The notes: generated by a model from the letters alone, not told the origin. A DNA stretch of 64,000 nucleotides from an uncultured Rickettsiales bacterium (GCA_964558555.1 CAZLEO010000008.1:61-64060); one strand, 5' to 3'; positions 15,108-64,000 are shown, counted from the first letter of the stretch. A program made the numbers and translations.

Positions 15108-15112
15108 GCCGC

Positions 15113-15748: not shown

Positions 15749-15930
15749 GGCGATCCCTGCCCCACTCTCGAGCGCCTCGCCGCGAGCCTAGCACAGCCTC
15801 GGCGCCCCGCGAATGTACGCGCGAGGATGCCATCGCCCACGTGACGGCCACGACGGGTACAATCTGTGGTTGAGTGCCCGGATTGATGCGGCACCGGGGG
15901 CCGAAGCATCGTCCTGGCAAAGGAGGGAAC

Positions 15931-25880: not shown

Positions 25881-26578
25881 GGTTCGCTCTTTCTCGCGGG
25901 GTGGTTGACCCGCTCGCACCGGACCAGGTCCAGGTGCCACACCAGCATGGGCTTGCCGTAGAAACGGAAGCGGCCGGCGCGCTCGAAGCCCCAGGAGGTC
26001 AGCTGGCGCACGGCGCCGGCGTTGTCCTCCTCGGTGGTGATCTTGACGTGATCGTGGCCGCGCGCGGCCAGCTCGTCGAAGAGCACCTTGTTGATCAGCC
26101 CGGCCACCTTTTTACCCCGCAATCCCGGCTCGAACGAACAAAACATGGACTCCGCCTTCACGTCGGGGCCCTCGTCGGTCCGCGTGAGGGTGTGGTAGCG
26201 GAAGGTCTCGGCCAGGGGCAGGGCCGCGCCGGGGCGCCCCACGAGGCCGCGCGCGGTGGACAGGGCCAGGGCCGGAGCGTGACGCGTGAACGTCTCGCGT
26301 AGCATGCGCGGTCCGTCCTCCGTCCCCGCGATGAACCCCTGCACGCGCCCGTCGTCCACGAAGACCCAGGCCAGGAAGTCGGGGTGCTCCAGCAGGGCCT
26401 TGTAGATACGCGCGAGGAACCGCGGCCCCAGCTGGGCCCACAAGGAGTGACCCATGGCCGCGGTGTGCAGGCGGACCACCCCGGGGACGTGGGCCCGGTT
26501 CATCCGGTGGATGCGGGCCCGCACCTCGGGGTCGACGGGGAAGGGCGCGAGGCGCCCGTTCGGGGACGGCTCGGCCAA
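25865..26578 (-). CDS. GNAT-family N-acetyltransferase.
   Basis: Acetyl-CoA-binding motif (AARGHDHVKITTEEDNAGAVRQLTSWGFE). TTG start, 2 nt after the crotonase stop. Confidence 0.65.
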   Translation of the reverse strand: MAEPSPNGRLAPFPVDPEVRARIHRMNRAHVPGVVRLHTAAMGHSLWAQLGPRFLARIYKALLEHPDFLAWVFVDDGRVQGFIAGTEDGPRMLRETFTRHAPALALSTARGLVGRPGAALPLAETFRYHTLTRTDEGPDVKAESMFCSFEPGLRGKKVAGLINKVLFDELAARGHDHVKITTEEDNAGAVRQLTSWGFERAGRFRFYGKPMLVWHLDLVRCERVNHPARKSEPCASC

Positions 26579-26580
26579 GC

Positions 26581-27351
<771 letters not shown>

Positions 27352-27370
27352 GGAATCCTCCCCAGAGGGG

Positions 27371-35600: not shown

Positions 35601-35811
35601 CCTCGACCAGGGCATCATCGACCTGCTGCGCGAGGGCTTCCGCTACGTGGTCCTGCACCGCCGGGTGGTGTGGGACTCGGGGCTGAGCTTCGAGATGCCC
35701 CGGGACACCGAGCTGGAGCTGTTCCTCGTGGACGCCCTGGGCAAGCCCGCGTACGAGGACGCCGAGATCGTCGTGTTCGACCTGCGCGCCACCGGAAGGA
35801 CCGGAAATTGA
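32614..35811 (+). CDS. Large fusion protein. Signal peptide, alpha/beta-hydrolase (lipase-like) domain, MopE metal-binding motif, then a ~700-aa polytopic membrane domain.
   Basis: ILVHGDGEG lipase-type motif. DADGDGYCATAAGGNDCDDANPAIYPGAPE motif. More than 12 predicted TM helices. 4-nt overlap with the aminotransferase gene. Confidence 0.55.
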   Translation: MIHEVPAQRSRWPGLAAAGLALALLAVPGVGRATLTDLPRDFELSEVAWGGLGGGEARTDCGELRHHPVILVHGDGEGPEAWIAGEDGGAVGALRAAGFGPCEVWALRVGEAGKPMRSLEELTDDVKVFMYAVLSYTGAPRVQIVADDEGAVLVHATLVKYGLHNLVHALVYLDAPFGGEPGCNDDRCFAGEVMCCTLRRKSGFLDRTLLPVETPHALSAVPDGRRTGHIRYLTAGPTPAVALKDRTDVHGGWMLDGAWNLSYPGLAAKPAHHVPELWGVIVRTLSDPAAACQRADDADGDGYCATAAGGNDCDDANPAIYPGAPEVQADGIDQDCNLHDLDRSIVGWKCERPLGDPVGPTVLGPRATTTEEEDGDWSWQEWVVVAALSALLLPIGWVAYGAFGRRWFKRMRRRARRGALSAPAADEEPVAEETPDRPWRARLLEGAVVAAVFAAVVTAALFTRGFDPALHYVGGNYEFVGWNLVDWNVHYWSMWDFRHVYLGLDNPLRSVHEFYPEGLLTVTVRGDLAMMAIAGVVGLFCSPDTTYLLMLVFILAGNGLGGFVLVRTLTGSRLAGLAVGVVFCFAGVTSWALNTGNLEYGLWLWICLYFAALVQVLRHGGRKRAVIAGVFGLLAIYSNFLFIYHLAGVSAVLLAFRARQLDTRRWISLGVLVATILSLLLPFAIYFRYEGKDQGQVLLPNADELSDDQGTGQMRRNNSYALSDYLPWKRGYTREHGEYLHFDRNDADTYYLLFAAVVLGLIVAPRRSLPWLVAGGVFLSLSLGPDWTIGTAEDPTRVPLPYTLAVRIVPLFYRIYFPHRIFTFAMICAGVVMGYAIAWLLQRAGRPGSIRLSGGKQRMRVGGRRMRTLVGIAVVFAVFMELHGAWGIRTFWKHEVHPFYQQLGEDHEQYAMVVFPMDYGVFDARYLYFQTVHHKPLFNGTVPRYFGIYGIPNYEMLEENSILRRAYQLQMEHMPRTVTAAMIEIGGASFALDRPTLDQGIIDLLREGFRYVVLHRRVVWDSGLSFEMPRDTELELFLVDALGKPAYEDAEIVVFDLRATGRTGN

Positions 35812-44800: not shown

Positions 44801-44964
44801 TCGAAGACGATGCGGCAGTCCGGCGGCGGCTCGCCGATCTCGCCGGCCAGCTCACCCTCGTCCATCAGGTCGGGCTCGAGGAGTGGGGGATCTGCGGCGA
44901 GGGCGGGCAGGGCGGTGCCGAGGGTGAGGGCGAGGGTCAGAGCTGGGATATTGAAGGGACGCAA
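41863..44964 (-). CDS. Large secreted protein (1033 aa). Central region resembles 5'-nucleotidase/metallophosphoesterase domains; the C-terminus is beta-rich (possible outer-membrane domain).
   Basis: Signal peptide MRPFNIPALTLALTLGTALPALA. Apparent TTG start with an AGGGA Shine-Dalgarno sequence. The domain call is weak. Confidence 0.4.
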   Translation of the reverse strand: MRPFNIPALTLALTLGTALPALAADPPLLEPDLMDEGELAGEIGEPPPDCRIVFDGNTGGVSSGRMELGFGDLLFDYLEQEGGRIVSVQSGMGALYREGRYLWTDDGLLSSAITFLPAGGFEVVERVDPAPVIRTDLAVLVQGVHDPDLELLDHLERAMGERHGYGDAIRLQGVLTRYRNSDGAEAWVAQGPGMPPDAPLEQEFTTWEVRSQETVVVEQSGQQRTLHQLSRMVGEGTRRMALTRGLIERADAPAVYVSSGGVVEGRSFVPGQDASLHRPLSWDSLGEAGLRLLSPGLPELMLGLDHLTTEAEEAGITVIAANLTDAAGDHPFDGAQMIQLGDVDVAFIGVVDPAIEAQLDSTARSGLDIESPAPAVERALHSLRAREGRDPDLTVLLAGFEPDTFGDLVARLAHVDVVVGDFHAAVPRAQEQTVRPAPARLYAPDPPPLLVVHASGVETGQLDVRMDDGRLAELALNTTPITQLLPPDPEGLARVMEIRQSVYLDGEPVLIPDLRTLVEEDVNRLQFLVQGQPYQRVIEVEMATGTLAVERLQLRMTRSLFANLSANVLLERSGADVVVLPPLPWPVDLSGATRDMYASAYLAVPDELQLMELTGAQLKELVRLTGDARNAPRSAPRRTATRGDVESEKRTGAPWVAGLDPTHGKVGGRPLVGGDTYRVLTTSKLRDYASVTSVIGGAKPKTRFRTTDRGFRPTLHGQPLTLRAQVLRGLHDARDTHDGFDEAYRAQLSDWLRERGETIHPMFYARADNLGVVLTRYMVNGDQEPYANVRESRITTPGSFTFGLRADGTLGIDTRNLVFETRGKAVLTLNTIGEEDPTELEDDLLLSADLGLKALSIRKAPVYPFLQASYDTEFLRADELADDGAVIGQQPRQKDLRGTAGATASNLIPTVKTIKTGPFIEYDLSADSGALEAGISLDIAQEVSRGPLKWANTLVLSGWFPHRDDTDEDLLISANFRSELGVVLLGHLHLKVYADLLAYRGKVDATSDPGLSTIVGVELAYSGMFKARIRRRP

Positions 44965-47168: not shown

Positions 47169-48354
47169 GGATGAGCTGGAAGTGGACCTCCTCGCCGGCG
47201 CGCAGGGCGTGCTCGCCCGCGGGCAGGGGCACCAGCGCGTTGGCCGCGGCCGTGGCGAAGACATCCGCCGAGCCGCTCCCCGGGCGAGCCGTGACCTCGT
47301 AGTGGTCGTCGCACCACCGCGCGGTCACCAGCGCGAACAGTTCTCGCTTGCTCTGGTACCACGCGTCGTCGCTCAGCACCCCCCGATGTCGTGGGGGCGC
47401 CGGGACGTGGCCCGTCATCTTGGCCACGGCCGCGGAGACGTACACCTGGAACGCCACCACCGTCGCGAGGGGATTGCCGGGCGCGCCGAAGACCAGGGTC
47501 CGGCCCCGCGTGCCGAACCACAGCGGTTTGCCGGGCTTTTGCAGCACCCTGTGGAAGCAGCACTCGACGCCCAGCTCCTCCAGGGTGTCCGGCACGAGAT
47601 CGTACTTGCCCCGCGACACACCTCCGGCGATCACGACCACGTCGCTCGCCAGCGCGTCTTGCAGGGTGGTCCGGAGTACGTCCGGATCGTCCGTCGCGCG
47701 CAGCAAGGTGATCTTGTCGAGCCCCAGGCAGCGCGCCTGCGCGGCCAGGGACACCCCGTTGGAGTCCCGGATCTGATGGGGGCCGGGCTCGCTGTCGATG
47801 GAGACCAGCTCGTCGCCGGTGGTGACCACCGCCAGGGACGGGGTCCGCCGGACGCGCACGAGGGTGCGGCCCTCGGCGGCCAGCGCCGCGATCCCGATGG
47901 GGGTCACGACGGCGCCCTCCGGCAGGATCACCTCACCTTCGGCCGTGGAGCTGCCCCTTCGAGCCACGTGCTGTCCGGCCTTGACCTCGTCTGCGAAGTG
48001 GATCGCGTCTCCGCTGCGCGAGGTCATCTCCACCGGGACCACGGCGTCTGCGCCATCGGGGAGGGGGCCACCAGTCATGACCTCCATGCACGCGCCGGAT
48101 CGCACGTGGGTGATCGCGACCGCTCCGGCCGGGCACTCTCCGATCCGCAGCAGGGTCACCCCGGCCCGGACCTCCGCGGAGCGCACCGCGTACCCGTCCA
48201 TCATCACCTTGTCGAACGCCGGGTGGGAGGACGAGGTGACGAGCGCCTCGCTCAGGACGCGGCCGACCGCACAGTGGATGGGGATGACGATGTTGCCGAG
48301 GGTCTCCGGACAGGCGGCGAGGACCTCCTCGAGGGCTTGTTCGACGGTGATCAT
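47146..48354 (-). CDS. moeA: Molybdopterin molybdenumtransferase MoeA.
   Basis: MoeA N-terminal and MoCF-binding motifs (DGYAV, GGVSRGKYD). Confidence 0.85.
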   Translation of the reverse strand: MITVEQALEEVLAACPETLGNIVIPIHCAVGRVLSEALVTSSSHPAFDKVMMDGYAVRSAEVRAGVTLLRIGECPAGAVAITHVRSGACMEVMTGGPLPDGADAVVPVEMTSRSGDAIHFADEVKAGQHVARRGSSTAEGEVILPEGAVVTPIGIAALAAEGRTLVRVRRTPSLAVVTTGDELVSIDSEPGPHQIRDSNGVSLAAQARCLGLDKITLLRATDDPDVLRTTLQDALASDVVVIAGGVSRGKYDLVPDTLEELGVECCFHRVLQKPGKPLWFGTRGRTLVFGAPGNPLATVVAFQVYVSAAVAKMTGHVPAPPRHRGVLSDDAWYQSKRELFALVTARWCDDHYEVTARPGSGSADVFATAAANALVPLPAGEHALRAGEEVHFQLIRGGDRSG

Positions 48355-49607
48355 GCGTACTCCTCAGACGTGGCCTCGTCGGCCGGCTCCGATGCCGACG
48401 TCTCCGGTAACAGCGGCAGGAGCTTGATTCCCAGGACGAACAGCGCAGCACCCAGCGCCAGGATCCCGCCCGAGACGAGCCACTCGAAGAGGCTGGGGAA
48501 GTACTCGAAGACCGCGCGCTGCGAGTGATAGGCCTCGGCCAGGCCCTCCATCATGGGCTGGGTCAGGGGCGGCACCACGAGGTTCAGCCGCACCGACAGG
48601 AAGGTCACGGCCACCAGGCCGCCCGCGAGGGCCACGGCGCCGGGCTTTCGCGGCAGCCAGACCAGCAGCGCCACCGGGACGACGACGCCCAGCGCCAGGT
48701 GGAAGATCCAGAAGTTCCACCAGTACGGGCCGAACAGCAGGTGATGGAAGATCTCGGATTCGTGGCTGATGCCCTGCCACAGGGGGGTGGAGAACTCGGC
48801 CCACTCCAGCAGGCTGTCGGCCAGCACCAGCACCAGGACCAGCCGGCCGAGCATGACCAGGGTCTCGCGGAACCGGGCACCCCGGTCGGGCCACACGATG
48901 TAGTAGATCGCCGCCAGCCCGCCGCAACCCGAGGCCAGGGCGCCGACCAGGAAGATGATCGGGAACAGGGGCTGGTGCCAGTACATCCGCGCGCCGATGG
49001 TGGCGAACAGCGCTCCCACGCCGCCGTGGAAGGCGATGGCGAGGGGGACGCCGATCATGCCCAGGCGGTGGAGCCAGCGTTCGGCAAAGGGCTCGGGGAT
49101 GCGCGTGACCTGACGGGCCATGAAGCCCGTCAGCCCCCTCTTGTCACGCCAGGGCACCAGCCGGGGGACCAGGGCCAGGAGGTTCTCGACCAGGATCACG
49201 CCGAAGTAGGTGGAGTACAGGAAGATCATCCACGCCATCATCGAGCGGAAGTTGGCGTGGAGCATGACCTGGATGGAGCGGTTCATGTGGCCCAGGTCCA
49301 TGGCGATGGACAGCAGCGCCATGACCAGGGTGACCGCCGCGGTGAACAGGGCCAGCGGCGCCAGGGGCGCCAGCTTCTCCACGCGTCCGACGTAGACCAC
49401 GGACGAGAGGATGAACGAGCCCGCGGACAGGCCGATGAAGTAGATGTAGAAGGCGACCCACAGGCCCCAGGGGATGTAGTTGTTGTAGTCGGCGAGCTGG
49501 TGGCCGGTGCTCAGCCTCAACCAGACCCCCCAGACCCCGGTGACGGCGAGGACCGCCCAGAGCAGGAAGAAGACGATCTTGGCGAGCCGGATCATGGTGC
49601 TCTCCAT
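48351..49607 (-). CDS. NrfD/PsrC-family polytopic membrane anchor subunit (quinol-interacting).
   Basis: ~10 TM helices with the NrfD family pattern. An alternative start at 49595 (MIRLAK) is preceded by GGAGAG. Confidence 0.75.
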   Translation of the reverse strand: MESTMIRLAKIVFFLLWAVLAVTGVWGVWLRLSTGHQLADYNNYIPWGLWVAFYIYFIGLSAGSFILSSVVYVGRVEKLAPLAPLALFTAAVTLVMALLSIAMDLGHMNRSIQVMLHANFRSMMAWMIFLYSTYFGVILVENLLALVPRLVPWRDKRGLTGFMARQVTRIPEPFAERWLHRLGMIGVPLAIAFHGGVGALFATIGARMYWHQPLFPIIFLVGALASGCGGLAAIYYIVWPDRGARFRETLVMLGRLVLVLVLADSLLEWAEFSTPLWQGISHESEIFHHLLFGPYWWNFWIFHLALGVVVPVALLVWLPRKPGAVALAGGLVAVTFLSVRLNLVVPPLTQPMMEGLAEAYHSQRAVFEYFPSLFEWLVSGGILALGAALFVLGIKLLPLLPETSASEPADEATSEEYA

Positions 49608-51827
49608 CTACAGGCGGTCACACGAGCCGCGCTTGCTGGCCAGCAGCTCGGCGAGGGTCCGCCGCGGTTCGGGGTCGGCCGGGTGGACCGTGACGGCTCC
49701 GGATTCGCCGCGCAGCGAACCCACCTCGGCCCCGAACGTCCGCCGCGGATCGGGCTGGACCGCGGCTCCGTCGATGGTCATGCGTCCATCGAACCCCTCG
49801 GTGTGCCCGTACCCCACGGCGGCGGCGACCACACCGGGGCGGACGGCCTCGGTCTCGACCACGTTGATCTCCCGGTGCGCGCGATCCGCCTCCAGCTCGA
49901 CGCGGTGCCCCCGTCGGACCCCGACCTCGGCGAACGTGCTCGGGTGGACCCAGGCCTCGTTCTCGGCCCTCAGGGACGGCGTGGCCCAGTACTGGGCCGT
50001 GGAGTCCACGAAGCCGCCGAAGCTCTCGCGGTAGGTCACCAGCGCCACCCCCTCGATGGGATCCCCGGGGGATCGGACCGCGCTGGGACGGAACGCTTCG
50101 GGTTTGGGCGGCGTGACAGGGCTGCGGCGGGCTTCGAGCCAGCCCCGGTGCTGGAGCCTGGCCGGGTTCGGGGTCGCGGCGATGGCCGCTTCCAGGACCG
50201 CGTGACTGTCCAGCGTCTCACCGGCGAGCGCGGCGAGGGTCTCGAGCAGGCCCTCGAGCCCACGGCTCCAGGGCGCCTCCAGCCCGGCCTCGCTCATCAC
50301 CGAGCCGACCGTCGGCTGGACCAGCGAGATGCCGTCCCAGCGCTCGACGAGGCCGAACCGCTCGTGCTCGGTCACGTCCGGGACGATCCAGTCGGCCAGG
50401 GCGGCCACGGGGTTCATGACCGTCGTGACGACCACGAGGTTGCGCACGCGGGCGGGGTCGGCCAGGGCCTCGAGCAGCTCGGCGTGGTGGGGGCCGTCGG
50501 TGATCCCTCCGTCCCCCACGACGATCAGGGTCTCGAGGGTCTCCCTGGCGGCCAGGCGTTGTTGCAGCGCGAGGTCGGCACGCTCCCCGAGGGGAACGGG
50601 CGACAGCGCCGGCTCCATGGCCCCACCGACGCCCGTGGCCCCGGACAGGACCGCCAGCCGCAGGATGGCCTCGCAGACCTCGGCGCCGTCGGGGCGCTCC
50701 CCCACGCCGCCGCCCACCCGCACGGTCAGACCATCACCCATCTCCGCGAGCCGGTCGGCGGTGCGCCGGACGACCATCTCACCCAGCCCCGACCGCGGCT
50801 CTAGGTCCTTCCACGGCCGCGCGGCGATCTGGTCGAGCCACTCGTCGGGCGGCTCGACGACACCGTCGTCCACCCAGGCCCTGAGCAGCATCCACGCCAG
50901 GGCCATGTCGCCGCCTGGGCGCACGGGCAGCCAGACGTCGGCCATCCCGGCGACCTCGGACAGCCGCGGATCGACCACGACCAGGGCGCCCGTCCCGTGG
51001 CGCTCACGCAGCCGGAGCAGCTCCCGCGAGTCCCCGATGGGATCCACACCGGACGCGATCGCGTCGGCCCCCCAGATCAACGCCCCCCGCGCGCGCTCGA
51101 GGCGCGGCTGCAGCGTCCAGCCGGGCTGTCCCATCATGGCGTCGCTGGCCGCGTTCACCCACGGGTTGGGCGTACCCAGGAGGACCTCGGCCCCCTCCAG
51201 CGTCTGCTGGAAGGCCTCCAGGACCGGGCGCCGGTCCAGCTGGCGCGGATCCACCGCGACGACGGTCCCGGATGGAGCGGTATCGGCGATCAGGTTTGCC
51301 GCTGCCGCGGCGGCGTCGCCGGGCTGGAGGGTCTGCCAGGCCCCCTCGCCGCGCTCGCCGAGCCTGGAGAGCGGCCGCACGATGCGGAAGGGGTCGTGGG
51401 TGTTCTGCAGCCGCGCCTGGCCGCGGGCGCAGCAGGCTCCTCGCAGGGTCGCGGCGTCGGCGGCCGTGACCGGGAGGGGGCCGCCGTGGACCCTCGGGGA
51501 CCAAGGGTTGCCGTCGATCTTGGCCAGCACCCCACCTTCGGTGGCCACCCGCACGGGGCACGCGCCGTGGCACCCCAGACAGGTGGACAGGACGATGGAG
51601 CCGGGATCATCGAGGGGGTACTCGGCGCGGAAGATCGTGTCCGCGTCGGCAAAGTCGGGACGGCCGGGGCCGATGGCCAGCCCCGCGCGGGAGGCGGCCA
51701 GGGTTCCCAGCGCGCACCCGCCCAGCAGGGCGGTGAGACGACAGAACTGGCGGCGGTCCACGCCCTTTCGGGTGTCCCGGTCGGATCGGACCTCCGGATC
51801 AGCTCCTGTAGTAGACCGTCGGCTCAT
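49608..51827 (-). CDS. Molybdopterin (Mo-bisPGD) oxidoreductase catalytic subunit, Psr/Phs/Ttr-like, Tat-exported.
   Basis: Twin-arginine signal DRRQFCRLTALLGGCALG. N-terminal [4Fe-4S] motif CLGCHGACP. ~740 aa. Confidence 0.8.
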   Translation of the reverse strand: MSRRSTTGADPEVRSDRDTRKGVDRRQFCRLTALLGGCALGTLAASRAGLAIGPGRPDFADADTIFRAEYPLDDPGSIVLSTCLGCHGACPVRVATEGGVLAKIDGNPWSPRVHGGPLPVTAADAATLRGACCARGQARLQNTHDPFRIVRPLSRLGERGEGAWQTLQPGDAAAAAANLIADTAPSGTVVAVDPRQLDRRPVLEAFQQTLEGAEVLLGTPNPWVNAASDAMMGQPGWTLQPRLERARGALIWGADAIASGVDPIGDSRELLRLRERHGTGALVVVDPRLSEVAGMADVWLPVRPGGDMALAWMLLRAWVDDGVVEPPDEWLDQIAARPWKDLEPRSGLGEMVVRRTADRLAEMGDGLTVRVGGGVGERPDGAEVCEAILRLAVLSGATGVGGAMEPALSPVPLGERADLALQQRLAARETLETLIVVGDGGITDGPHHAELLEALADPARVRNLVVVTTVMNPVAALADWIVPDVTEHERFGLVERWDGISLVQPTVGSVMSEAGLEAPWSRGLEGLLETLAALAGETLDSHAVLEAAIAATPNPARLQHRGWLEARRSPVTPPKPEAFRPSAVRSPGDPIEGVALVTYRESFGGFVDSTAQYWATPSLRAENEAWVHPSTFAEVGVRRGHRVELEADRAHREINVVETEAVRPGVVAAAVGYGHTEGFDGRMTIDGAAVQPDPRRTFGAEVGSLRGESGAVTVHPADPEPRRTLAELLASKRGSCDRL

Positions 51828-52500
51828 TGCCGAGCTCCTCCTTGAGCCTGTGGCCGCCGTGGTGGGAGATGCTCTCCTGGACCAGGCTGTACGGGTCGTT
51901 GAGATCTCCGAAGACCAGGGCACCCGTGGGACAGGTGAGCACGCAGGCGGGCAGCGAACCGCGGGCGAGCCGGTGCATGCAGTGGTGGCACTTGCGGACG
52001 TTGCCCACGGGGCTCTCGTGGTGGTGGCGCGTCCACGGCCGGTCGTAGTCGGGCGACGGCCGCTGCTCGTAGGCCACCTCGCCGTGGCAGCCCTCGCCGT
52101 ACCGATCCCCCACGTCGAACGTGCGCGCCGAATAGGGGCACGCGGTCATGCAGTACCGGCAGCCGATGCACTTCATGTAGTCCATCACCACCGTCCCGTC
52201 CGGGGTCGAATAGGTGGCGGCGACGGGGCACACCAGCACACACGCGGGCGTGGCGCAGTGCATGCAGGGTTTGGGGCGGTAGGACCGCCGCGTGTGGGGG
52301 AACTTCCCGTGCAGCTCCTCGAGCACCATCATGTAGGTGATCGCCGGGGGCAGGTTGTTCTCGGCCTCGCACGCGACCTGGCAGGCGCGGCACCCGGTGC
52401 AGGCGTGCATGTCGATGAACATGCCCCACTGACGCCGGCCGTCGCGCCGCTGGAGGGCACGGGTCAGCTCCTCGGCCTGCCTGGCCTTGGCGTCGCTCAT
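51799..52500 (-). CDS. 4Fe-4S ferredoxin-type iron-sulfur subunit (PsrB/NrfC-like).
   Basis: Four Cys clusters (CTGCRACQVAC, CMHCATPACVLVCP, CIGCRYCMTACP, CHHCMHRL...CPTGA). GGGAGG Shine-Dalgarno sequence. Confidence 0.85.
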   Translation of the reverse strand: MSDAKARQAEELTRALQRRDGRRQWGMFIDMHACTGCRACQVACEAENNLPPAITYMMVLEELHGKFPHTRRSYRPKPCMHCATPACVLVCPVAATYSTPDGTVVMDYMKCIGCRYCMTACPYSARTFDVGDRYGEGCHGEVAYEQRPSPDYDRPWTRHHHESPVGNVRKCHHCMHRLARGSLPACVLTCPTGALVFGDLNDPYSLVQESISHHGGHRLKEELGNEPTVYYRS

Positions 52501-53072
52501 GGGGGGGCCTCCCGTTCGGGTTGCGAAGGGGGCCCTCGGTGGACCCGGTCGTGCATCGCGGTGTGGACGCGGACGCTGCGGTCGTGGAACGCCTCCACGT
52601 GGCAGTTGCGGCAGTGGAGGCCCTCGAAGGGCCGCTCCATCATCCGGTCGTGGTGGCAGGCCTCGCACCGCTCGGTGATGTCGATGTCGTGGGAGCCGTC
52701 GGCGTGACACCGGACGCAGTCGGTGCTGCCACGCCCGTGGGTCAGGTGGCACTCGAGGCAGCTCTGCTCCGCCACCACCGGGTTCTCCATCGACTCCATC
52801 CAGGATGGGACGTCGGCGCCGACCCGCAGCGTGGTGTACGACAGGTACTCCTTGATCGGGAGTACGTGGCAGACGTGGCAGCTGGCCGAGAAGGTTTCCG
52901 AGTGAGGAGGCGTGTCCAGGGCCTCGGCGTCGGAGGTGCCGTGGTGGCACGACACGCACAGGGCCTCGCGCGTATCGATCTGCTCGAAGCGGGCGCCACC
53001 GGCGAAGCCGCCGAGGAACAGCCCGATCACGGCAGGGGCGAGGGTGCGGGGTTGGATCAAGTTCCTCACCAC
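52497..53072 (-). CDS. Hexaheme c-type cytochrome (NrfB/ActA-like).
   Basis: Six CxxCH motifs (CVSCH, CHVCH, CLECH, CVRCH, CEACH, CRNCH) and an N-terminal TM/signal. Confidence 0.8.
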   Translation of the reverse strand: MVRNLIQPRTLAPAVIGLFLGGFAGGARFEQIDTREALCVSCHHGTSDAEALDTPPHSETFSASCHVCHVLPIKEYLSYTTLRVGADVPSWMESMENPVVAEQSCLECHLTHGRGSTDCVRCHADGSHDIDITERCEACHHDRMMERPFEGLHCRNCHVEAFHDRSVRVHTAMHDRVHRGPPSQPEREAPP

Positions 53073-53182
53073 ATGCCTCCGTGGGGGAGCACCACGGCGA
53101 GGAATCGCACCAGGAACATCAGCCAGTAGCCCAGCACCGCGCCGACCACGAGCATCCCTGTGCCGATGATCCAGCGCATCAT
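53066..53182 (-). CDS. Candidate 38-aa single-TM protein (MMRWIIGTGMLVVGAVLGYWLMFLVRFLAVVLPHGGMW).
   Basis: GAGGA Shine-Dalgarno sequence. Overlaps both flanking genes by 4-7 nt in the operon. Confidence 0.35.
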   Translation of the reverse strand: MMRWIIGTGMLVVGAVLGYWLMFLVRFLAVVLPHGGMW

Positions 53183-55743
53183 GGTGAATCCTCGCCCTGG
53201 TCCAGGGTCAGCCGGTACTCGTCCTCGTGGAAGAAGGTGAGCTGCGGCCTGCCCTCGAGGCCGTGGCACACCTCACAGAAGCGGACGATCTCGTCGGGAT
53301 CACGCAGGAAGCTGTTGAGCTCCGAGCCGTCCACCTCTCCGGGCCGGTCCTCGGCGTCGTGGCGCCAGCGGTGCGGGTCGTGGCAGGTCATGCACGTGAT
53401 CTCCCCCACCTGGCGGTTCTCGGTCTGCTCGCCGTCGGGGCCGTAGTAGGGCACGGGGCCGTCGTAGCGGAACGGCAGCCCGCCCACGGTGAGCATCAGC
53501 CGCTCGGGGTGGGTGTAGTGGTCCACTGGGGTGGCGTCGGTGGAGCCGTCGTGGCAGGCCAGGCAGCGACCGTTGGCGGGGTTGATCTCCCCGGCGCCGT
53601 CGTCGGCGAGCCCTGTCATCAGGTAGTCCAGATCCGATCCGTGGGCCGCGTGGCACGAGAGACAGGGCCGCCGCTCGCCGTCGACGGCCACGACGCTGGC
53701 GTCGTGATCCGTACCCAGCACCGCACCCTTGTCGGCGTGGCACTCGAGGCACAGGGGGCCGACGCCGTCGTCGCTCCTGAGCACGAACGCGGTACCCGCG
53801 TGGGCATCGTGGCAGGTGCTGCAGCCGAGCCGACCATCGTAGTCGGGCAGGTCGCCGTGCTCGCCGGGCTCGAGGTCCGTGCCCAGCGGATGGGAGGCTG
53901 CCAGGGAGATCTGCGGGTCCTCGCTGCCGTCGGTGTGGCAGTCCAGGCACTGATCGGGTCCCACGCCCTGGCGCCGCTGGCCGTCCCCGAAGCCCCCGGG
54001 CCGCGTGTGCATGCCGTGGCATTCCTGGCAGGCCGGCGCTCCGTGGCCGCCGGCCCGGATGGCGCGCGACTCGTCCACGTGGCAGGCGCGACAGGCGTCG
54101 GTGCCCGCCTGGTTCATCCGCAACAACGTGGCGCTGGTGGACTGGTGGGGATCGTGGCACGACAGGCAGGTCAGGTGGCCGTCGGGCGCGAAGGCCCCGC
54201 CCATGGACTCGACCCGGTTGAGGGTGATCCGGTCGACCTCCACGTCCACGGCGTGGCGGGAGAACCCGCTGGCGTGGTCCGCGTGGCACGACGTACACAG
54301 GTCGCCGTTGGACGCCGCCGAGATCAGCAGGGGGTCGGCGTGGGCGCCGTGGGGCGGATGGCAGCTCATGCACACCAGCCGCTCGCCCTCGAACCGCGCG
54401 CCCTCCCCGATCAGCTCCTCCGCGGCCGTGCCGGCCGGCGGCGCCAGCCCGATGGGGTGGCTCTTGCGGCGGTGCGAGGTCTCGGTGTCCAGGTAGTCGT
54501 CGTGGCACTCGACGCACAGATCGTTGCCCGGGAAGCGTGAGACCTGCTCCCCTTCGCGCGGCAATCCGAAGTCCACCACCTCACCCAGCGCGGCGGGCCC
54601 GGCGGAGGCGCCCATCTCCCTGTGCACGAAGTGGCAGGTGTGACAGGTCATGTCGCCGGACTCGGACGTGCGGAACCGCTCCGGGATCTCGTCGTCCTCC
54701 TCGAGCACGAGGGGATGGTTGGTGGCCCCTGGGTCCCAGTTGCCGGAAGCGAGCACCCTCGTGCCGTCGTGACACTGACGGCAAACGAAGGACGGGTCTG
54801 CGTCGCGGACCGTGGCGCTGCTGGCGAGCTCCCCTTCGGGCGGGAACCGCCCGTCCCGCCACGCGCTCCCCTGCGCGTCCAGGCGGTACGCCGAGGCGGA
54901 GCCCGCGTCCGTGACGTACAGGCTGCCCTCGTGTGCGGCGATGCCGATGGGGAAGGCGAACAGCAGCGGCTCGGCGGGCCCGGAGATCAGCTGCCGGAAC
55001 GTGCCGTCGCGCTCGAGGATCTGCACCGCGCCCTTGTGGCTGTCCACCACGGCCATCGCGCCGTCGGCGAGGACGGCCACGTCCTTGGGCTTGTAGAAGC
55101 GGCCCTCCCCCGGTCCCCACTCCCCGAAGGCCCCACGCAGGGTCCCGTCGTCGGCGAGATGGAGCACGCGGCCCGCCAGCGTCTCGGTGACGAGGACCCC
55201 GCCGTCGCCGTCCGAGACGAGGCCACGGGGACCTTCCAGCGGCGTACCGTCGATCGCGTCGATGTCCGCCTCCACCGCACCGGCGGAGTCCAGGACCAGG
55301 ATGCGATTCTGGGGCGTGAGGGCGACCCACAGCCTGCCGTCCGCGGCGACACAGACGTCGATGGGCTCGGTGTGCTCGTCGAGGATGATCTCGTCCTGTT
55401 GCCGGCCGTCGGCGGGGGACAGGAGCACGAGCCGATGGTTGCCTGCGTCGGCGATCCAGATCCCCTCGTCTGCCACGCCGATCCCCGATGGGTGATCGAG
55501 GTCCTGGGACACGCGCCAGCGGATCTTCCCCATGGGTCCGACCGCCATCACGACGTCCCTGGCGATGTCGGCGATCACGACGGTCCCGTCGGCGAGGACG
55601 TCCACGGCCGCGGGCTCGGCCAGGCCCGCCTGCCAGGTGGAGCCGATGACGAAGCCCGTGGTCGTACCCGGGCCGGCGAGCACCCCCCCGGCGAGGGCGC
55701 ACAGGAGCCCCAGGCCGGCCGCGACGAGGAGTAGGCGCTTCAT
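53179..55743 (-). CDS. Fusion protein: N-terminal NHL-repeat beta-propeller followed by a 15-heme c-type cytochrome domain.
   Basis: Signal MKRLLLVAAGLGLLCALAGG. NHL-like repeats. 15 CxxCH motifs. Confidence 0.8.
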   Translation of the reverse strand: MKRLLLVAAGLGLLCALAGGVLAGPGTTTGFVIGSTWQAGLAEPAAVDVLADGTVVIADIARDVVMAVGPMGKIRWRVSQDLDHPSGIGVADEGIWIADAGNHRLVLLSPADGRQQDEIILDEHTEPIDVCVAADGRLWVALTPQNRILVLDSAGAVEADIDAIDGTPLEGPRGLVSDGDGGVLVTETLAGRVLHLADDGTLRGAFGEWGPGEGRFYKPKDVAVLADGAMAVVDSHKGAVQILERDGTFRQLISGPAEPLLFAFPIGIAAHEGSLYVTDAGSASAYRLDAQGSAWRDGRFPPEGELASSATVRDADPSFVCRQCHDGTRVLASGNWDPGATNHPLVLEEDDEIPERFRTSESGDMTCHTCHFVHREMGASAGPAALGEVVDFGLPREGEQVSRFPGNDLCVECHDDYLDTETSHRRKSHPIGLAPPAGTAAEELIGEGARFEGERLVCMSCHPPHGAHADPLLISAASNGDLCTSCHADHASGFSRHAVDVEVDRITLNRVESMGGAFAPDGHLTCLSCHDPHQSTSATLLRMNQAGTDACRACHVDESRAIRAGGHGAPACQECHGMHTRPGGFGDGQRRQGVGPDQCLDCHTDGSEDPQISLAASHPLGTDLEPGEHGDLPDYDGRLGCSTCHDAHAGTAFVLRSDDGVGPLCLECHADKGAVLGTDHDASVVAVDGERRPCLSCHAAHGSDLDYLMTGLADDGAGEINPANGRCLACHDGSTDATPVDHYTHPERLMLTVGGLPFRYDGPVPYYGPDGEQTENRQVGEITCMTCHDPHRWRHDAEDRPGEVDGSELNSFLRDPDEIVRFCEVCHGLEGRPQLTFFHEDEYRLTLDQGEDSP

Positions 55744-56732: not shown

Positions 56733-57034
56733 GGCAGCACTCCGTTGGAGCCGTGGCAGTCGGAGCAGCTGTCGTAGCCCTCCGTCCGCACCAGGGTCTC
56801 CAGTTCCAGGTAGTCCACGCCCGTCGTGCACTCGCGCTGGTGGACCACCGCGAGGACGTGGCAGGCCGCGCAGTCGTCCCGGCCCCAGCCATCGGCGTGC
56901 TCCGAAGGGGTCACGACGAGCCCCTCCTCCGACTGGCCGATGGGGACCTCCAGGTCCTCGCACGGCGTCAGAGAGGCGCACGACAGCCCGAGGACGGCGA
57001 GCCCCAGGGAGACCAGGACGTGGCGCGCTACCAT
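56729..57034 (-). CDS. Diheme c-type cytochrome lipoprotein (101 aa).
   Basis: Lipobox LGLAVLGLSC. CAACH and CSDCH. GGAAGG Shine-Dalgarno sequence. Confidence 0.7.
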   Translation of the reverse strand: MVARHVLVSLGLAVLGLSCASLTPCEDLEVPIGQSEEGLVVTPSEHADGWGRDDCAACHVLAVVHQRECTTGVDYLELETLVRTEGYDSCSDCHGSNGVLP

Positions 57035-57633
57035 GGCGACCTTCCGTTGCTGTGACAGCGCGTACACGAGTCGCCGGAGTGGCACGTGACGCAGGACTGG
57101 GGATCGAAGCGGGCCTCGATGCCGTGGAGCGCGCCCCACCCCGGCGGGTGATTCGAGCGGGTCAGGGCGCCGCGGTTCTCGTGGCAGGTGAGGCAGCGGC
57201 CGGTGTCGTGGCATTCGTGACAGCCAGGGCGGATCATCCTGACCTCGCTGCCGTGGAACCTGGCCCAGCCCGGCCCGTGGGAGTCGGGGGAGAACCCCTC
57301 GCCGTGACAGATCTGGCACCCCTCGGGACCCACGGCGGCGCGGGTGTCCGTGGCCTTGTGACAGTAGTGGCAGCTGGCAGGGGGCGGCGACAGGAACGCG
57401 TCGTCCAGGACCTCGGCGTCCCCGGGTTCCTCCAGGCGCGTCCCGACCAGGTGACAGGCGACGCACGCGACGTTCTGCTCGGTGAAGGTCTCGACGTGCT
57501 CCTCGTGCAGGAACTCGTCGAAGATCAGCTGCACCTCCTCGGACGTGAGGGACTCCTCGGCCCCACCCCCGACCATCGTGGCCGAGGCGCCCAGCAGGAT
57601 CACCACCAGCGGCGTCGCGACGATGGCCCTCAC
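57028..57633 (-). CDS. Heptaheme c-type cytochrome.
   Basis: Seven CxxCH motifs. GTG start after AAGGGAGGGG. Signal peptide. Confidence 0.75.
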   Translation of the reverse strand: MRAIVATPLVVILLGASATMVGGGAEESLTSEEVQLIFDEFLHEEHVETFTEQNVACVACHLVGTRLEEPGDAEVLDDAFLSPPPASCHYCHKATDTRAAVGPEGCQICHGEGFSPDSHGPGWARFHGSEVRMIRPGCHECHDTGRCLTCHENRGALTRSNHPPGWGALHGIEARFDPQSCVTCHSGDSCTRCHSNGRSPW

Positions 57634-59009
57634 AGCGCCCCCCTCCCTTGGCCCACGCGGGCCTGCAAGGCCACGCCCGCACGCCACCAGGGGGACAGCA
57701 GACGGTCCGTGCCCACGGCGGTGCGGAAGACGATGCCCAGTTGACCCCACTTGGGCCGCACGGGAAGGACCAGGCTCCCCTGGAACCGGGCCTCCCCGAC
57801 GGTGGCCTGGGTCCCATCCAGGCCCTGGAAGCGATAGATCCCGGCCTCACCCCAGAGGTGGACCGGGCCGACCTGGTGGCGCATCCCCACGCCGCCGCCG
57901 GCGTACCACGATGCGCCCACGGACGTGCCGGTGCCGTAGAGGCCCAGTCCGGACCAGTCGAAGGCCAGCTTTGCGGTGCCGCCGACCGCGACTCCCGTCT
58001 CCACACCCGGGGGGATCTCGGAGTCCTCGGCCACGACCTCGTAGCCCTCGGTCTGCTGCCCGATGGTGGGGCCGCCCTCGACACGGAGGCTCAGGTCGTT
58101 GGCGGGCCGGAGCTCGAACGAGACCTCGGCCACGCCGTAGTCCTCGGGGCGGAGGGTCTCCACGATCGAGGCGGCGGACCAGGGCACCGTGATGGGGGGC
58201 AGGCCGTAGTAGCGCCCGCCCAGCCTCAGCCTCGCGCGCGTCCCCAGCGGGAGCGAGGACTGGACGCGCGCCGCGAATCCAACCCCCCCGGAGTCCTCGA
58301 CCCCCTCGGTCTCGCCGTCGATGCCGAGCTCGCCCAGCGCCAGCAGGGACACCCCCCGGCTGCTGCGCAGGGTCGTGCTCAGGTGGATGCGGTGGGTCAG
58401 GTTCACCGGCGTGCGGCGAATGTCGTACCCGGCGGCGAGGCCGAACGCCCCCGGTGAGATGCGGAACTGCGCGCCGCCGCCCACGTCTCCGCCGATGTCG
58501 ATCGCCTCCGGGTGGCCCACGCGGCCGCCCCACAGCGACACCCCCACCGGATCGTCCATGCCGAGGTTCAGCAGGACGCCGTCCACGCGGGTCAGGCCGA
58601 GGGTCCCGGCGTGGACGTACCGGCCGGCCGTGATCGACACCTTGGGGCCGTTGTACTGCACGGCCAGGCGCTGGATGCTCGCCTCGTCCCAGGCGTACAC
58701 GTCGGTGGTGGCCAGGGGGATCAGCAGCTGGCCGTCGGCGATCACCCGGAAACGCGGTGAGAAGCCTGCGGTGAGCGACAGCCCATGGCGCATCCGGGCC
58801 CAGGTGTCGCCGTTGGACTCCGGCAGGACCTCGATGGACGAATGGCCCTCGGCCTGGCTCTGGCTCGCAAATGTACCCGCGCTGGCCAAAGAGGCAAAAG
58901 CCAGCAGGGGGACCAGCACCAGGCCGAAGGCCCACCGTCCGGAGCGAGTGGGCGCGCTCCGGAGCAGAGTTCGCCGTGGTTGCAAGAGGCGCACGGCCCT
59001 ACTCCTCAT
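57630..59009 (-). CDS. Porin-like outer-membrane beta-barrel protein (MtrB/PioB/OmbB-like context).
   Basis: Signal peptide. Glycine/aromatic-rich alternating beta-strand pattern throughout. No cofactor motifs. Flanked on both sides by cytochromes. Confidence 0.6.
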   Translation of the reverse strand: MRSRAVRLLQPRRTLLRSAPTRSGRWAFGLVLVPLLAFASLASAGTFASQSQAEGHSSIEVLPESNGDTWARMRHGLSLTAGFSPRFRVIADGQLLIPLATTDVYAWDEASIQRLAVQYNGPKVSITAGRYVHAGTLGLTRVDGVLLNLGMDDPVGVSLWGGRVGHPEAIDIGGDVGGGAQFRISPGAFGLAAGYDIRRTPVNLTHRIHLSTTLRSSRGVSLLALGELGIDGETEGVEDSGGVGFAARVQSSLPLGTRARLRLGGRYYGLPPITVPWSAASIVETLRPEDYGVAEVSFELRPANDLSLRVEGGPTIGQQTEGYEVVAEDSEIPPGVETGVAVGGTAKLAFDWSGLGLYGTGTSVGASWYAGGGVGMRHQVGPVHLWGEAGIYRFQGLDGTQATVGEARFQGSLVLPVRPKWGQLGIVFRTAVGTDRLLSPWWRAGVALQARVGQGRGAL

Positions 59010-59277
59010 CCTCGAGGTGGACTGGCGGGTAGGCGTGGCACAGGGAGCAGTGGTAGACCGACGTACCCTCGATCCGTCCGTCCTCGTCCTCGGCGTGGCA
59101 CTCGAAGCAGGCGGTGTCGTCCTCCTCGACGTCCTCCATGTGCAGGCGCGAGTACCCTTCGGGATGGGGGAATCCTCCCGATCCGTACCCCTCGGTGACG
59201 TCCACGGGCACGCCGCAGCTCCCCACGGCCAGCCCGAGCGCGCACGCCAGCAGGGTCCTGGAAATCCAGCGAGTCAT
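58999..59277 (-). CDS. Diheme c-type cytochrome lipoprotein.
   Basis: MTRWISRTLLACALGLAVGSC lipobox. CFECH and CSLCH. GGAG Shine-Dalgarno sequence. ATGA overlap with the upstream gene. Confidence 0.7.
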   Translation of the reverse strand: MTRWISRTLLACALGLAVGSCGVPVDVTEGYGSGGFPHPEGYSRLHMEDVEEDDTACFECHAEDEDGRIEGTSVYHCSLCHAYPPVHLEDEE

Positions 59278-59837
59278 CGATGCGCTCCACGCGGTGGCGG
59301 GGTGCGCCGGACCAGCAACCACAGGATCAGCAGATACGACGGCCAGGGCGCCGAGACATCGCCGGCGAGCGAGTACACGCAGCTGGCGGGAGCTTCGTCC
59401 TCGCCGGCGGAGTCGTCGTCGTCGGAGATGTCCGCGCACTCGTAGACCGGCAGCTCTTCGAGGACACTGAGATCATCCCCCGGGTTGCTGGTCTCCTCGA
59501 ACGCGGCGTCCTGGCCGTAGGTCCATTCGCCGCAGGGATCGCCGAGCTCCTCGCCGTTGGTCTGACCGTCGTCGTCGGAGTCGAGTGCGTACACCGCGGG
59601 CCAGATGGGTTTCGGGTTGACGTAGTCGTCGTAGGTCAGCGCGACGTCGACCCCGAACCAGGTGAGGTTCAGGGCCCTGTCGATGTCGATGTGACAGGCG
59701 CCGCAGTCGTGCGTGGCGCCGTTGGGGATCTCGGTGCTGAACAGGTTCCGCGCCTCGGCCGGGGCGGCCGGGAGCAGCGCGAGGAGGCACACCACCGCCA
59801 TGGCACGGGGTGCGGCACATGGCGGTCTGGTGCTCAT
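59274..59837 (-). CDS. Monoheme c-type cytochrome with a C-terminal TM anchor.
   Basis: Signal MAVVCLLALLPAAPAEA. Single CGACH. C-terminal hydrophobic helix. Acidic region. Confidence 0.6.
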   Translation of the reverse strand: MSTRPPCAAPRAMAVVCLLALLPAAPAEARNLFSTEIPNGATHDCGACHIDIDRALNLTWFGVDVALTYDDYVNPKPIWPAVYALDSDDDGQTNGEELGDPCGEWTYGQDAAFEETSNPGDDLSVLEELPVYECADISDDDDSAGEDEAPASCVYSLAGDVSAPWPSYLLILWLLVRRTPPPRGAHR

Positions 59838-60496
59838 GTGCCGCTGGCCCCGTGCCGCGCACCCTCTTCCTCGAGCAAGACCTCGGTGAGGCGCGCCAGC
59901 TCGGCGTAGAAGGGTCGCCGTGCCGCTTGCCGCACCTTCCGACAGAATGGGGGAACCCAGCGAGAGAGATCCTGTCGGTAGAGGTAGCGTTCGGAGTTGA
60001 GGATGCGCTCGGCTCGTTCGTCGTCTCCGTCCTGTAGTGCCCCGGCCTGGCTCTCGAGGAGCTTGGCGTACAGCTCCAGCTCGTGGGCGACGTGGTCCGG
60101 GATTCCGTCGTAGCTCTGTCCGCCGAACTCCAGGCCGTGGTCCTTGGCGAACCGACGGATGCGGCTCGTGGTATTGCCCCAGAGGTTGCCCTGCCTGGTG
60201 TCGTCCGGGTGGTGGACCGATCCGTAGGGCGGCACGTGCTTTCCCGGCCCCAGGAAGACCCTGGAGTACTCCCGGCGGATGGCCGTGAGCTCGTCCGCGT
60301 CCGCCAGGGCCTCCTGCTCGAGGTCGAAGCCCTCGCGCTGCAGCAGCCCCAGCGTTCCCGAGCTCGCCAGCTTGTCGCCCAGCTCCTCGGTGACCTCGCT
60401 GCGGTACAGCGTCGCCATGAGTCGGTACAGGGCCGCCCGCTCGATGAGAGCCAGGGGTTGTGTCGTCGTGCTGTCGGACATGTCACAGCTCTCCAT
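59834..60496 (-). CDS. TorD/DmsD-family redox-enzyme maturation chaperone (REMP).
   Basis: TorD-like helical protein (REYSRVFLGP...PPYGSVHH motif region). Confidence 0.7.
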   Translation of the reverse strand: MESCDMSDSTTTQPLALIERAALYRLMATLYRSEVTEELGDKLASSGTLGLLQREGFDLEQEALADADELTAIRREYSRVFLGPGKHVPPYGSVHHPDDTRQGNLWGNTTSRIRRFAKDHGLEFGGQSYDGIPDHVAHELELYAKLLESQAGALQDGDDERAERILNSERYLYRQDLSRWVPPFCRKVRQAARRPFYAELARLTEVLLEEEGARHGASGT

Positions 60497-63442: not shown

Positions 63443-64000
63443 TCAGATGCTGGGGACGTCGAGCTGGCGACCTGCGTCGCCGCGGATGTCGTAGCCGGTG
63501 TCGTAGACGTCGGAGTCGAGGTCGATGTAGTACAGCGCCGGGTCGGTGCCCGAGCCGCCGAGCAACACGGTGACCCGGTCGCCCGCGGCCTCGATCTGCT
63601 GGCTGATCTCGCTGTTGGGATCATTGAGGTTGCCCGTGACGCGCGCGTTGGCCGGACAGGTGTTCACGCACGAGGGCACGATCCCGTTGGCCAGGCGGTG
63701 GATGCAGCTGTTGCACTTGTCCACGGGGTGGGGATCGCTGATGGACAGTCCGAACTCGGCGGGGTCCCCGCCGGCGGTCTTGGAGTAGTCGAGGAAGCGG
63801 GCGCCGTAGGGGCAGTCCGCGACGCAGTACCCGCAGCCGACGCAGCGGTCCTGGTCCACGTGGACCAGGCCGTCGGGGCGCTGGTAGGTGGCGCGAGCCC
63901 AGAACTGGGCCGTGCCCCCGCCGGGGAACTCGAGGTTGGCCATGATCGGCGTGGTCGGGCAGCGCTCGAGGCAGACCGGCTCACGGCAGTGGTTGCACCG
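63443..64000 (-). CDS. 4Fe-4S iron-sulfur subunit partner of the second molybdoenzyme. Partial: the N-terminus lies beyond the window edge.
   Basis: CVGCGYCVADCP and CNSCIHRL...CPANA clusters. Translating upstream of the internal Met gives CNHCREPVCLERCP, so the gene continues past 64000. Confidence 0.75.
   Translation of the reverse strand, partial: RCNHCREPVCLERCPTTPIMANLEFPGGGTAQFWARATYQRPDGLVHVDQDRCVGCGYCVADCPYGARFLDYSKTAGGDPAEFGLSISDPHPVDKCNSCIHRLANGIVPSCVNTCPANARVTGNLNDPNSEISQQIEAAGDRVTVLLGGSGTDPALYYIDLDSDVYDTGYDIRGDAGRQLDVPSI

Follow-up and report, generated by a model that had tools for sequence, protein, structure and literature searches.

A predicted NHL propeller-15-heme cytochrome fusion encoded in a 38-heme gene cassette of an uncultured bacterium

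Results

The stretch of DNA analyzed here (the window, 64,000 nt at its full length) comes from an uncultured Rickettsiales bacterium (GCA_964558555.1, CAZLEO010000008.1:61-64060). Its minus strand carries a gene, referred to below as the target, for a protein in which NHL-type repeats precede a long series of c-type heme-binding CxxCH motifs. The target and its parts, in window coordinates, are as follows.

53179..55743, minus strand: NHL-15-heme cytochrome gene (target); intact 854-aa open reading frame (ORF) plus stop, with Pfam matches and a conserved family
55675..55743, minus strand: predicted Sec signal peptide, residues 1-23; by-eye reading, with an AlphaFold2 (AF2) helix at residues 2-21
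54844..55662, minus strand: predicted six-bladed NHL beta-propeller, residues ~28-300; AF2, Foldseek and profile matches, with an N-terminal strand closing blade 6
54784..54843, minus strand: linker, residues 301-320; short and partly conserved in alignments, entering the heme-1 motif
53182..54783, minus strand: predicted 15-heme c-type cytochrome domain, residues 321-854; 15 CxxCH and 15 His conserved

Read from its sequence, the target product is a predicted exported protein, a single polypeptide with the propeller first and then 15 heme-binding motifs. The minus-strand translation begins with ATG at 55743 and ends with a stop at 53181-53179, with zero internal stops. The G+C content at third codon positions (GC3) is 0.91, matching the expectation for a real gene in DNA with the 69% G+C of the window. 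Read on the plus strand, 53179-55743 is interrupted by stops, and the overlapping plus-strand ORFs were dismissed as G+C-rich noise. The target N-terminus, MKRLLLVAAGLGLLCALAGGVLA followed by G after the putative cleavage site, was judged by eye from the sequence to look like a cleavable signal peptide of the Sec type and lacks a lipobox. Most family members also have a plain signal peptide and no lipobox; lipoboxes are present in three distant 15-heme members (P0058, P0148 and P0176).

The 15 CxxCH motifs span residues 321-823 and take up 30 of the 32 Cys residues of the protein; 5000 shuffles of the target protein gave a mean of 0.06 such motifs and a maximum of 2. The target matched Paired_CXXCH_1 (PF09699) at 100 bits (cut-off 20.6) and TIGR01905 at 83.9 bits (cut-off 25.2), with further Pfam matches to Cytochrome_C7 and to MtrC/MtrF domain II/IV. 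Conservation was assessed in 24 full-length homologues (813-902 aa, 28-77% identity) from independent assemblies and sources. All 15 CxxCH motifs are 100% conserved in this set at identities down to 28%, and exactly 15 His residues outside the motifs are conserved as well. These distal-type residues are His 343, 374, 429, 465, 497, 533, 567, 579, 618, 648, 680, 701, 745, 791 and 839; no Met of the cytochrome domain is conserved at ≥80% in the 24 homologues. Because 15 additional His residues are conserved for 15 motifs, all 15 hemes are predicted to be bis-His, low-spin and six-coordinate, with no open site, a prediction that fits an electron wire and not an enzyme.

The motifs alternate between CxxCH…H and CxxCHxxH, yielding seven di-heme paired-CXXCH units plus one at ~37 aa per heme. 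MtrA/DmsE-type wires are built from such paired-CXXCH di-heme units. The best family match of the target is to the DmsE decaheme family (TIGR03508, E 2.7e-20), although its 72.9 bits fall short of the cut-off of 192.2 and the target is not a member. This is the strongest match to that family among the cluster cytochromes scanned, the octaheme protein reaching 9e-6, and in a profile search the heme domain weakly matched chain A of PDB entry 6r2q, which we take to be MtrA. The DmsE-family matches are weak pointers to the target as the most MtrA/DmsE-like cytochrome of its gene cassette. By analogy with MtrA, a rough guess for the length of the heme wire would be of the order of 10 nm.

Several comparisons identify the N-terminal region, in the model, as a true six-bladed NHL propeller over residues ~28-300. 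Pfam NHL (PF01436) matched the target at 56.7 bits against a cut-off of 20. An AF2 model was built from a 16-sequence family alignment; over residues 28-300 it contains 24 strands (within 29-293), that is, six four-stranded blades, at a predicted local distance difference test score (pLDDT) of ~90. The top Foldseek matches of this region in the PDB were the NHL domains of Thin, TRIM71/Lin41, TRIM2/3 and Brat, with E values as low as 1e-19 and, against NHL crystal structures, target TM-scores of 0.78-0.85, and the family profile retrieved the same structures at E 2.5e-42. In the family alignment, conservation within the propeller is confined to positions of the periodic NHL consensus, with no conserved polar cluster that would suggest an active site or a cofactor and no His/Cys/Asp/Glu cluster specific to one face or blade; on this ground the propeller was judged non-catalytic. 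It weakly matches the Vgb lyase and SGL families, both below threshold in Pfam (35 vs 50 bits for Vgb_lyase; 17.7 vs 26.3 for SGL). The linker that joins the propeller to heme 1 is ~20 residues long and ends in the invariant motif CRQCHDGT.

The initial annotation had described a secreted 854-aa protein with NHL-type repeats followed by 15 CxxCH motifs, placing it exactly at 53179-55743 without stating the minus strand. The intact ORF and the Sec-like N-terminus as read by eye bear out this description, the motif count and the co-occurrence of Pfam NHL and Paired_CXXCH_1 in one polypeptide confirm the order of the parts, and the Pfam, AF2, Foldseek and PDB profile results indicate that the repeats do fold as a propeller. 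A frameshift or hidden stop splitting the gene had been raised as a concern; none was found, and full-length homologues from independent assemblies have the same architecture.

A word-indexed search recovered ~16 full-length relatives (36-77% identity, 741-862 aa), all derived from metagenomes or metagenome-assembled genomes (MAGs) and none with a functional name. An exhaustive hidden Markov model search of 1.84 billion cluster representatives (50% identity) returned 99,277 matches, most of them NHL-only or cytochrome-only proteins. An N-terminal NHL domain followed by 13, 15, 16, 18, 20, 22 or 24 CxxCH motifs was found in 34 of the 150 best cluster representatives. Fusions of this kind had been called uncommon: the fusion itself exists, but its rarity was overstated, given this share among the best representatives. 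One 20-heme member, from a Phycisphaerae MAG, carries no annotation beyond "cytochrome c3 family protein". Our literature search for an explicit NHL-multiheme fusion found none, the nearest trace being a single Tenderia accession termed both a pentaheme and an NHL protein. As judged from these sequences, the NHL-multiheme fusion is a recurrent, unstudied architecture and not a singleton.

Other members of the wider family differ in their surroundings. Paralogues with 13 hemes (L004, 10001-12070; L009) adjoin NrfD, 7-heme and 6-heme genes, and the L004 paralogue lies in the same MAG as L001, one of the loci syntenic with the window, so that one genome can carry two different NHL-multiheme systems. 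The 20-heme member adjoins genes of the NapC/NirT type, for cytochrome b and for cytochrome c biogenesis (Cytochrom_C_asm). A split form also occurs: in L012 (5565-6503) and L017 (6161-7075), a standalone NHL propeller of 305-313 aa is flanked on each side by a multiheme-cytochrome b561 fusion, and ~3 kb downstream of it lies a 16-heme protein homologous to the target's heme domain. The split-form clusters are very heme-rich, with 7-, 7-, 9-, 6-, 3-, 16-, 14- and 10-heme genes. Occurrence of the propeller both fused to this heme domain and encoded separately near a homologue of it constitutes Rosetta-stone evidence that suggests physical contact between the two.

The genes around the target form a minus-strand series: FeS1, MoA, a NarJ-like chaperone, a monoheme Temptin_C-like protein, a diheme lipoprotein, a 454-aa barrel protein, a heptaheme cytochrome, a 101-aa diheme lipoprotein, an octaheme cytochrome, the target, a 38-aa transmembrane peptide, a hexaheme cytochrome, FeS2, MoB and NrfD, and then MoeA, MoaC-MobB, TatA and TatC. 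At each of the ten consecutive junctions from NarJ to FeS2, the neighbouring genes overlap by 4 or 7 nt or stand 4 nt apart, and ATGA overlaps flank the target on both sides. The seven-gene cassette from the barrel to the hexaheme cytochrome totals 38 hemes and is translationally coupled. Its members and the two small cytochrome genes preceding it are as follows.

59274..59837, minus strand: monoheme Temptin_C-like protein with C-terminal hydrophobic tail; Pfam Temptin_C match
58999..59277, minus strand: diheme lipoprotein, accessory cytochrome; from translation
57630..58994, minus strand: predicted 22-strand outer-membrane beta-barrel, 454 aa; AF2 and Foldseek
57028..57633, minus strand: heptaheme cytochrome, 201 aa; 7 CxxCH, 7 hemes kept in L021, L022 and L026
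56729..57034, minus strand: small diheme protein with lipoprotein-like N-terminus, 101 aa; 2 hemes kept in L021, L022 and L026
55740..56732, minus strand: octaheme cytochrome, 330 aa; 8 CxxCH, Pfam Cytochrome_C7 and Paired_CXXCH, conserved; stop overlaps the target ATG (ATGA)
53066..53182, minus strand: 38-aa single-transmembrane peptide; 4-nt overlaps with the target stop and the hexaheme start
52497..53069, minus strand: hexaheme cytochrome with N-terminal hydrophobic anchor, 190 aa; 6 CxxCH, QrcA/ActA-like position, conserved

The AF2 model of the 454-aa protein has 22 long antiparallel strands at a mean pLDDT of 71, and all of its top Foldseek matches are outer-membrane barrels (ushers, AlgE, OprD/Occ, MOMP); homologues were found only in syntenic loci. 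The 38-aa peptide (MMRWIIGTGMLVVGAVLGYWLMFLVRFLAVVLPHGGMW) has an invariant C-terminal PHGG[M/A/L]W and no known family. A counterpart lies at the same place in L021, L022, L023 and L026 (38-44 aa across loci; 39 aa in L026). The two diheme proteins are the only lipoprotein cytochromes in the cluster. In the monoheme protein, an acidic middle precedes a hydrophobic stretch at the C-terminal end with RR after it (…PWPSYLLILWLLVRR…). The look of this tail recalls an anchor or sorting signal; a MYXO-CTERM-type sorting signal was considered and rejected, as no NCBIfam model matched.

On either side of the cassette lie genes for a molybdoenzyme and for a putative quinone-linked module.

63443..64000 (running off the window end), minus strand: FeS1, partner four-cluster iron-sulfur (FeS) subunit of MoA; from translation, full gene in L021
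60553..63429, minus strand: MoA, catalytic subunit of an accessory Psr/Phs/Arr-clade molybdoenzyme, 958 aa; twin-arginine translocation (Tat) motif plus lipobox
59834..60496, minus strand: NarJ/TorD-family chaperone; Pfam Nitrate_red_del, E 7e-21
51799..52500, minus strand: FeS2, four-cluster ferredoxin, PsrB/QrcC/ActB2-like, 233 aa; four Cys-cluster motifs, Fer4 families
49608..51827, minus strand: MoB, divergent Tat-signal molybdopterin-family subunit, 739 aa; weak Pfam Molybdopterin matches
48351..49607, minus strand: NrfD-type integral membrane quinone-site subunit, 418 aa; Pfam NrfD, E 4e-39

The hexaheme cytochrome, FeS2, MoB and NrfD together have the subunit composition of the quinone modules of Qrc and alternative complex III (ACIII). 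Matches stayed below equivalog level: QrcB scored 54.6 bits on MoB (cut-off 440) and QrcD 58 on NrfD (cut-off 570), and the DsrP match of NrfD, like that of QrcD, was under its cut-off. MoB retains a Tat motif and a Cys motif similar to an FS0 cluster site. Aligned with ArrA at low confidence, it has an Asp at the residue that we take to be the Mo-ligand Cys of ArrA. By sequence, MoB may be a scaffold without cofactor, in the manner of QrcB/ActB1, or else an additional catalytic subunit. In MoA, the twin-arginine motif SRRELLTSLG directly precedes the lipobox AIAAC, which would make the protein a lipoprotein exported by Tat. Within the molybdenum-bis(pyranopterin guanine dinucleotide) (Mo-bisPGD) family, MoA groups in the Psr/Phs/Arr region, and it has long acidic insertions relative to PsrA and ArrA. 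Relatives at 45-50% identity come from many uncultured phyla and are uncharacterised; their automatic names include thiosulfate/polysulfide reductase, dimethyl sulfoxide (DMSO) reductase and "selenocysteine-containing dehydrogenase".

Synteny extends over the whole cluster in L001-L003, L011 and L021. At 30-47% identity, L021, L022 and L026 have the same order and heme counts (7/2/8/15/6), and even the more distant L022 (34% identity) and L026 (30%) keep the block from the barrel-position gene to the 6-heme gene. MoA, FeS1 and NarJ are present in the window, L001-L003 and L021; MoA is absent from L022 and L026, and in L022, where FeS1 and NarJ are missing too, a CarboxypepD_reg-multiheme protein is found instead. 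The terminal module thus appears, from gene content, to be exchangeable between a molybdoenzyme and a surface multiheme protein. Genes for a PhnD-like periplasmic binding protein and a HAMP/HisKA sensor kinase adjoin the cassette in L021 (1-1657) and L026 (10189-13921), and L026 also has a sigma-54 response regulator beside them; these genes may encode a dedicated regulator.

Discussion

We consider it probable, at roughly 60%, that the target serves as the long wire in an electron conduit spanning the envelope, with its propeller as a docking module. The protein would be exported by Sec, and its C-terminal ~530 residues would bind 15 c-type hemes as a long wire, with the propeller as a docking or anchoring module that attaches the end bearing heme 1 to another member of its complex. 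As a stoichiometric subunit of the translationally coupled 38-heme cassette, the target would take part in a conduit whose inner end reaches the quinone pool through the Qrc/ACIII-like FeS/Mo-like/NrfD module and whose outer end serves the molybdoenzyme of the Psr/Arr clade, exported by Tat and anchored by lipid, in the way that DmsAB is served by DmsEF; elsewhere it would serve surface cytochromes. Membership in a complex is argued for by the overlapping junctions and by the constant order and heme counts in L021, L022 and L026. The initial annotation had suggested that the propeller positions a heme wire by binding a substrate or partner, and a positioning role fits the bis-His pattern, the restriction of conservation to the NHL consensus and the standalone NHL proteins beside homologous cytochromes. 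That annotation did not take in the operon context, from which most of the information on function comes. The three distant lipoprotein members are weak pointers to a propeller end lying near the membrane. Heme occupancy, subcellular position, the cytochrome occupying the barrel, the partner of the propeller, the direction of flow and the substrate are what we infer within this model.

Shewanella oneidensis offers the nearest functional parallel: in MtrCAB and DmsEFAB(GH), a decaheme passes through an outer-membrane barrel and serves a surface cytochrome or an extracellular DMSO- or iodate-reducing molybdoenzyme (PMC3282943, PMC11302344, PMC9048795), and service of DmsAB by DmsEF is the precedent for a conduit ending at a molybdoenzyme (PMC11302344, PMC9048795, PMC9732548). 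Like MtrA and DmsE, the target has a heme domain made of paired-CxxCH units, with DmsE as its best family match, and like dmsEFABGH the window operon has a (here predicted) barrel, a Mo-bisPGD enzyme, an FeS subunit and a TorD/NarJ-type chaperone. The target differs in having 15 hemes in place of 10 and in scoring below the TIGR03508 cut-off (72.9 vs 192.2). To our knowledge, MtrA and DmsE are without an N-terminal NHL propeller. The cassette differs from Mtr and Dms as well: its barrel is predicted to have 22 strands and shows no homology to MtrB/DmsF, it adds 7-, 8-, 6- and two 2-heme proteins, and its link to quinol is NrfD/FeS and not CymA.

Clusters for extracellular electron transfer (EET) with standalone NHL genes are the closest conceptual relatives of the target. 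Such genes have been described in the Uet cluster of "Ca. Tenderia electrophaga" (UetH/UetI; bioRxiv 10.1101/2022.05.06.490989; PMC10734462), the occ cluster of "Ca. Dechloromonas occultata" (10.1101/695007), D. ferrophilus (DFE_0451/DFE_0463; PMC9769857) and cytochrome clusters of Dethiobacter (PMC10376724). The roles put forward for them, protein-protein interaction or complex stabilisation, are proposals only. The resemblance lies in a six-bladed NHL protein encoded with multiheme cytochromes (in Uet also with a barrel) and in the split arrangement of L012/L017, where the NHL gene lies beside a homologue of the target's heme domain. Judged by published descriptions, the difference is that the target is one polypeptide with 15 hemes, while those clusters are without an NrfD/FeS/Mo-like module. 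What sets the target apart from these clusters are the covalent fusion of propeller and cytochrome, the 15-heme length and the association with an NrfD module and a molybdoenzyme.

The quinone-linked part of the window resembles Qrc (QrcABCD) and ACIII (ActABC…) in that an anchored hexaheme, a four-cluster FeS protein, a molybdopterin-family subunit and NrfD follow directly downstream of the target. It differs from them in that scores fall far under the equivalog cut-offs and in that MoB, which keeps Tat and FS0-like motifs, may bind cofactors; the gene order of qrcABCD differs from that of the window module. We know of no NHL-multiheme subunit in Qrc or ACIII. The Geobacter porin-cytochrome complexes (Pcc; OmaB-OmbB-OmcB and ExtABCD) combine a barrel of ~430-460 aa with octaheme and lipoprotein cytochromes. 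The window likewise has a predicted mid-sized barrel with periplasmic octaheme-type and lipoprotein cytochromes in one cluster, in contrast without a common sequence family, with lipoprotein cytochromes that are only diheme and with the additional 15-heme NHL subunit.

Several observations weigh against the conduit reading. The signal sequences on which the localisation of the target rests were judged by eye. The AF2 model of the heme domain had a pLDDT <50 and was not used for the geometry or length of the wire. The 454-aa barrel matched no Pfam or NCBIfam family and has no homology to MtrB/DmsF, and its Foldseek TM-scores are low (0.3-0.5). The barrel-position proteins of L022 and L026 keep position and size and show no BLASTP homology to that of the window, and L026 has no FeS2/MoB/NrfD module. 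No barrel was noticed at the 13- and 20-heme fusion loci, where the neighbours are NrfD/FeS or NapC/NirT plus cytochrome b, and the common denominator of the family may be a periplasmic or inner-membrane role rather than one at the outer membrane.

A more specific form of the conduit reading, which is in our view doubtful, has the 15-heme chain threading the 22-strand barrel. The propeller, judged too wide to pass, would then be a periplasmic stopper and docking hub, and one polypeptide would bridge the quinone module and the surface molybdoenzyme.

Among other explanations, the one that survives best, unlikely as we hold it to be, makes the target an outer-surface or secreted terminal reductase or oxidase whose propeller binds a mineral, a metal complex or another cell. 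Cell adhesion is a function put forward for NHL proteins of EET clusters (Gmet_0556), and it would suit such a role. So would the ligand-binding top faces of the matched NHL structures (RNA in Brat and TRIM71), the CarboxypepD_reg-multiheme neighbour in L022, a type typical of surface proteins, and the lipoboxes of the more distant 15-heme members; the surface cytochromes MtrC and OmcA are lipoproteins. The target itself and most members have a plain signal peptide and no lipobox or surface-sorting feature, however, and no type II secretion system gene was seen in the annotated part of the window. The propeller is also without a conserved patch beyond the NHL consensus, and the gene lies, with 4-nt overlaps, between those for periplasmic-type cytochromes and for the inner-membrane-anchored hexaheme.

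The 38-aa transmembrane peptide and the anchored hexaheme directly downstream of the target speak for a periplasmic electron distributor or store attached to the inner-membrane quinone module only, a very long extension of the QrcA/ActA type that takes no part in crossing the outer membrane and whose propeller docks on the FeS/Mo-like subunits. In line with this explanation, the constant neighbours of the family are 7-heme, 6-heme and mostly NrfD/FeS genes, including at the 13-heme loci, where no barrel was noticed. We nevertheless regard it as improbable: the barrel gene belongs to the same overlapping gene run, and L026 keeps the barrel-position gene, the 7-heme, diheme, 8-heme and NHL-15 genes and the 39-aa peptide without NrfD/FeS/Mo-like genes.

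Cytochrome cd1 nitrite reductase, hydrazine synthase alpha and quinohaemoprotein alcohol dehydrogenase join a propeller to c-type heme(s) in one polypeptide. By the example of such propeller-heme enzymes, the target propeller might be catalytic or carry a cofactor, the hemes feeding or draining its active site. Some NHL/SGL-fold proteins are enzymes, and the weak Vgb lyase and SGL matches, together with a heme 1 only 20 residues away in the invariant CRQCHDGT, could be read in this way. In those enzymes the active site or cofactor lies in the propeller, with 1-2 hemes, unlike the target with its 15 hemes and no candidate active site. The Vgb_lyase and SGL matches are under the Pfam cut-offs, no face- or blade-specific His/Cys/Asp/Glu cluster is conserved, and for every one of the 15 hemes the heme domain itself supplies a conserved distal His, which together leave a catalytic propeller with very little probability. 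An assembly or sequencing artefact joining two genes is refuted, for practical purposes, by 24 independent homologues at 28-77% identity with the same continuous ORF, by the uniform GC3 and by the lack of an internal stop.

NHL genes recur beside multiheme cytochromes (Uet, occ, D. ferrophilus, Geobacter, Dethiobacter), with a role that has so far only been proposed, and the covalent fusion provides a single-polypeptide system in which the role of NHL in electron-transfer machinery can be tested. The 38-heme cassette suggests that uncultured bacteria of high G+C content, probably related to Myxococcota, have a respiratory conduit across the envelope that has yet to be described. Were barrel threading true, it would be an undescribed architecture for extracellular respiration in uncultured Myxococcota-like bacteria and would explain the recurrence of NHL in unrelated EET clusters; if the conduit model is wrong, a well-defined new family of long multiheme cytochromes still remains.

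Other features of the window

Outside the cassette region, the window encodes on the minus strand (9507-16682) a 2391-aa protein with a Ser/Thr kinase, an nSTAND1 NTPase and a long WD40 array, and at 32614-35811 (plus strand) and 22235-23587 (minus strand) two large secreted-looking proteins with the MopE "putative metal-binding motif". The MopE-motif genes and the kinase-STAND-WD40 gene suggest a Myxococcota-type genome. Directly downstream of tatC, a 1033-aa ORF (41863-44964, minus strand) has 84% identity in L002; it matched no Pfam family and showed only faint UshA/5'-nucleotidase-like matches. A small biosynthetic group at 24429-28435 (minus strand) comprises a B12-binding radical SAM enzyme, an enoyl-CoA hydratase and a type III polyketide synthase.

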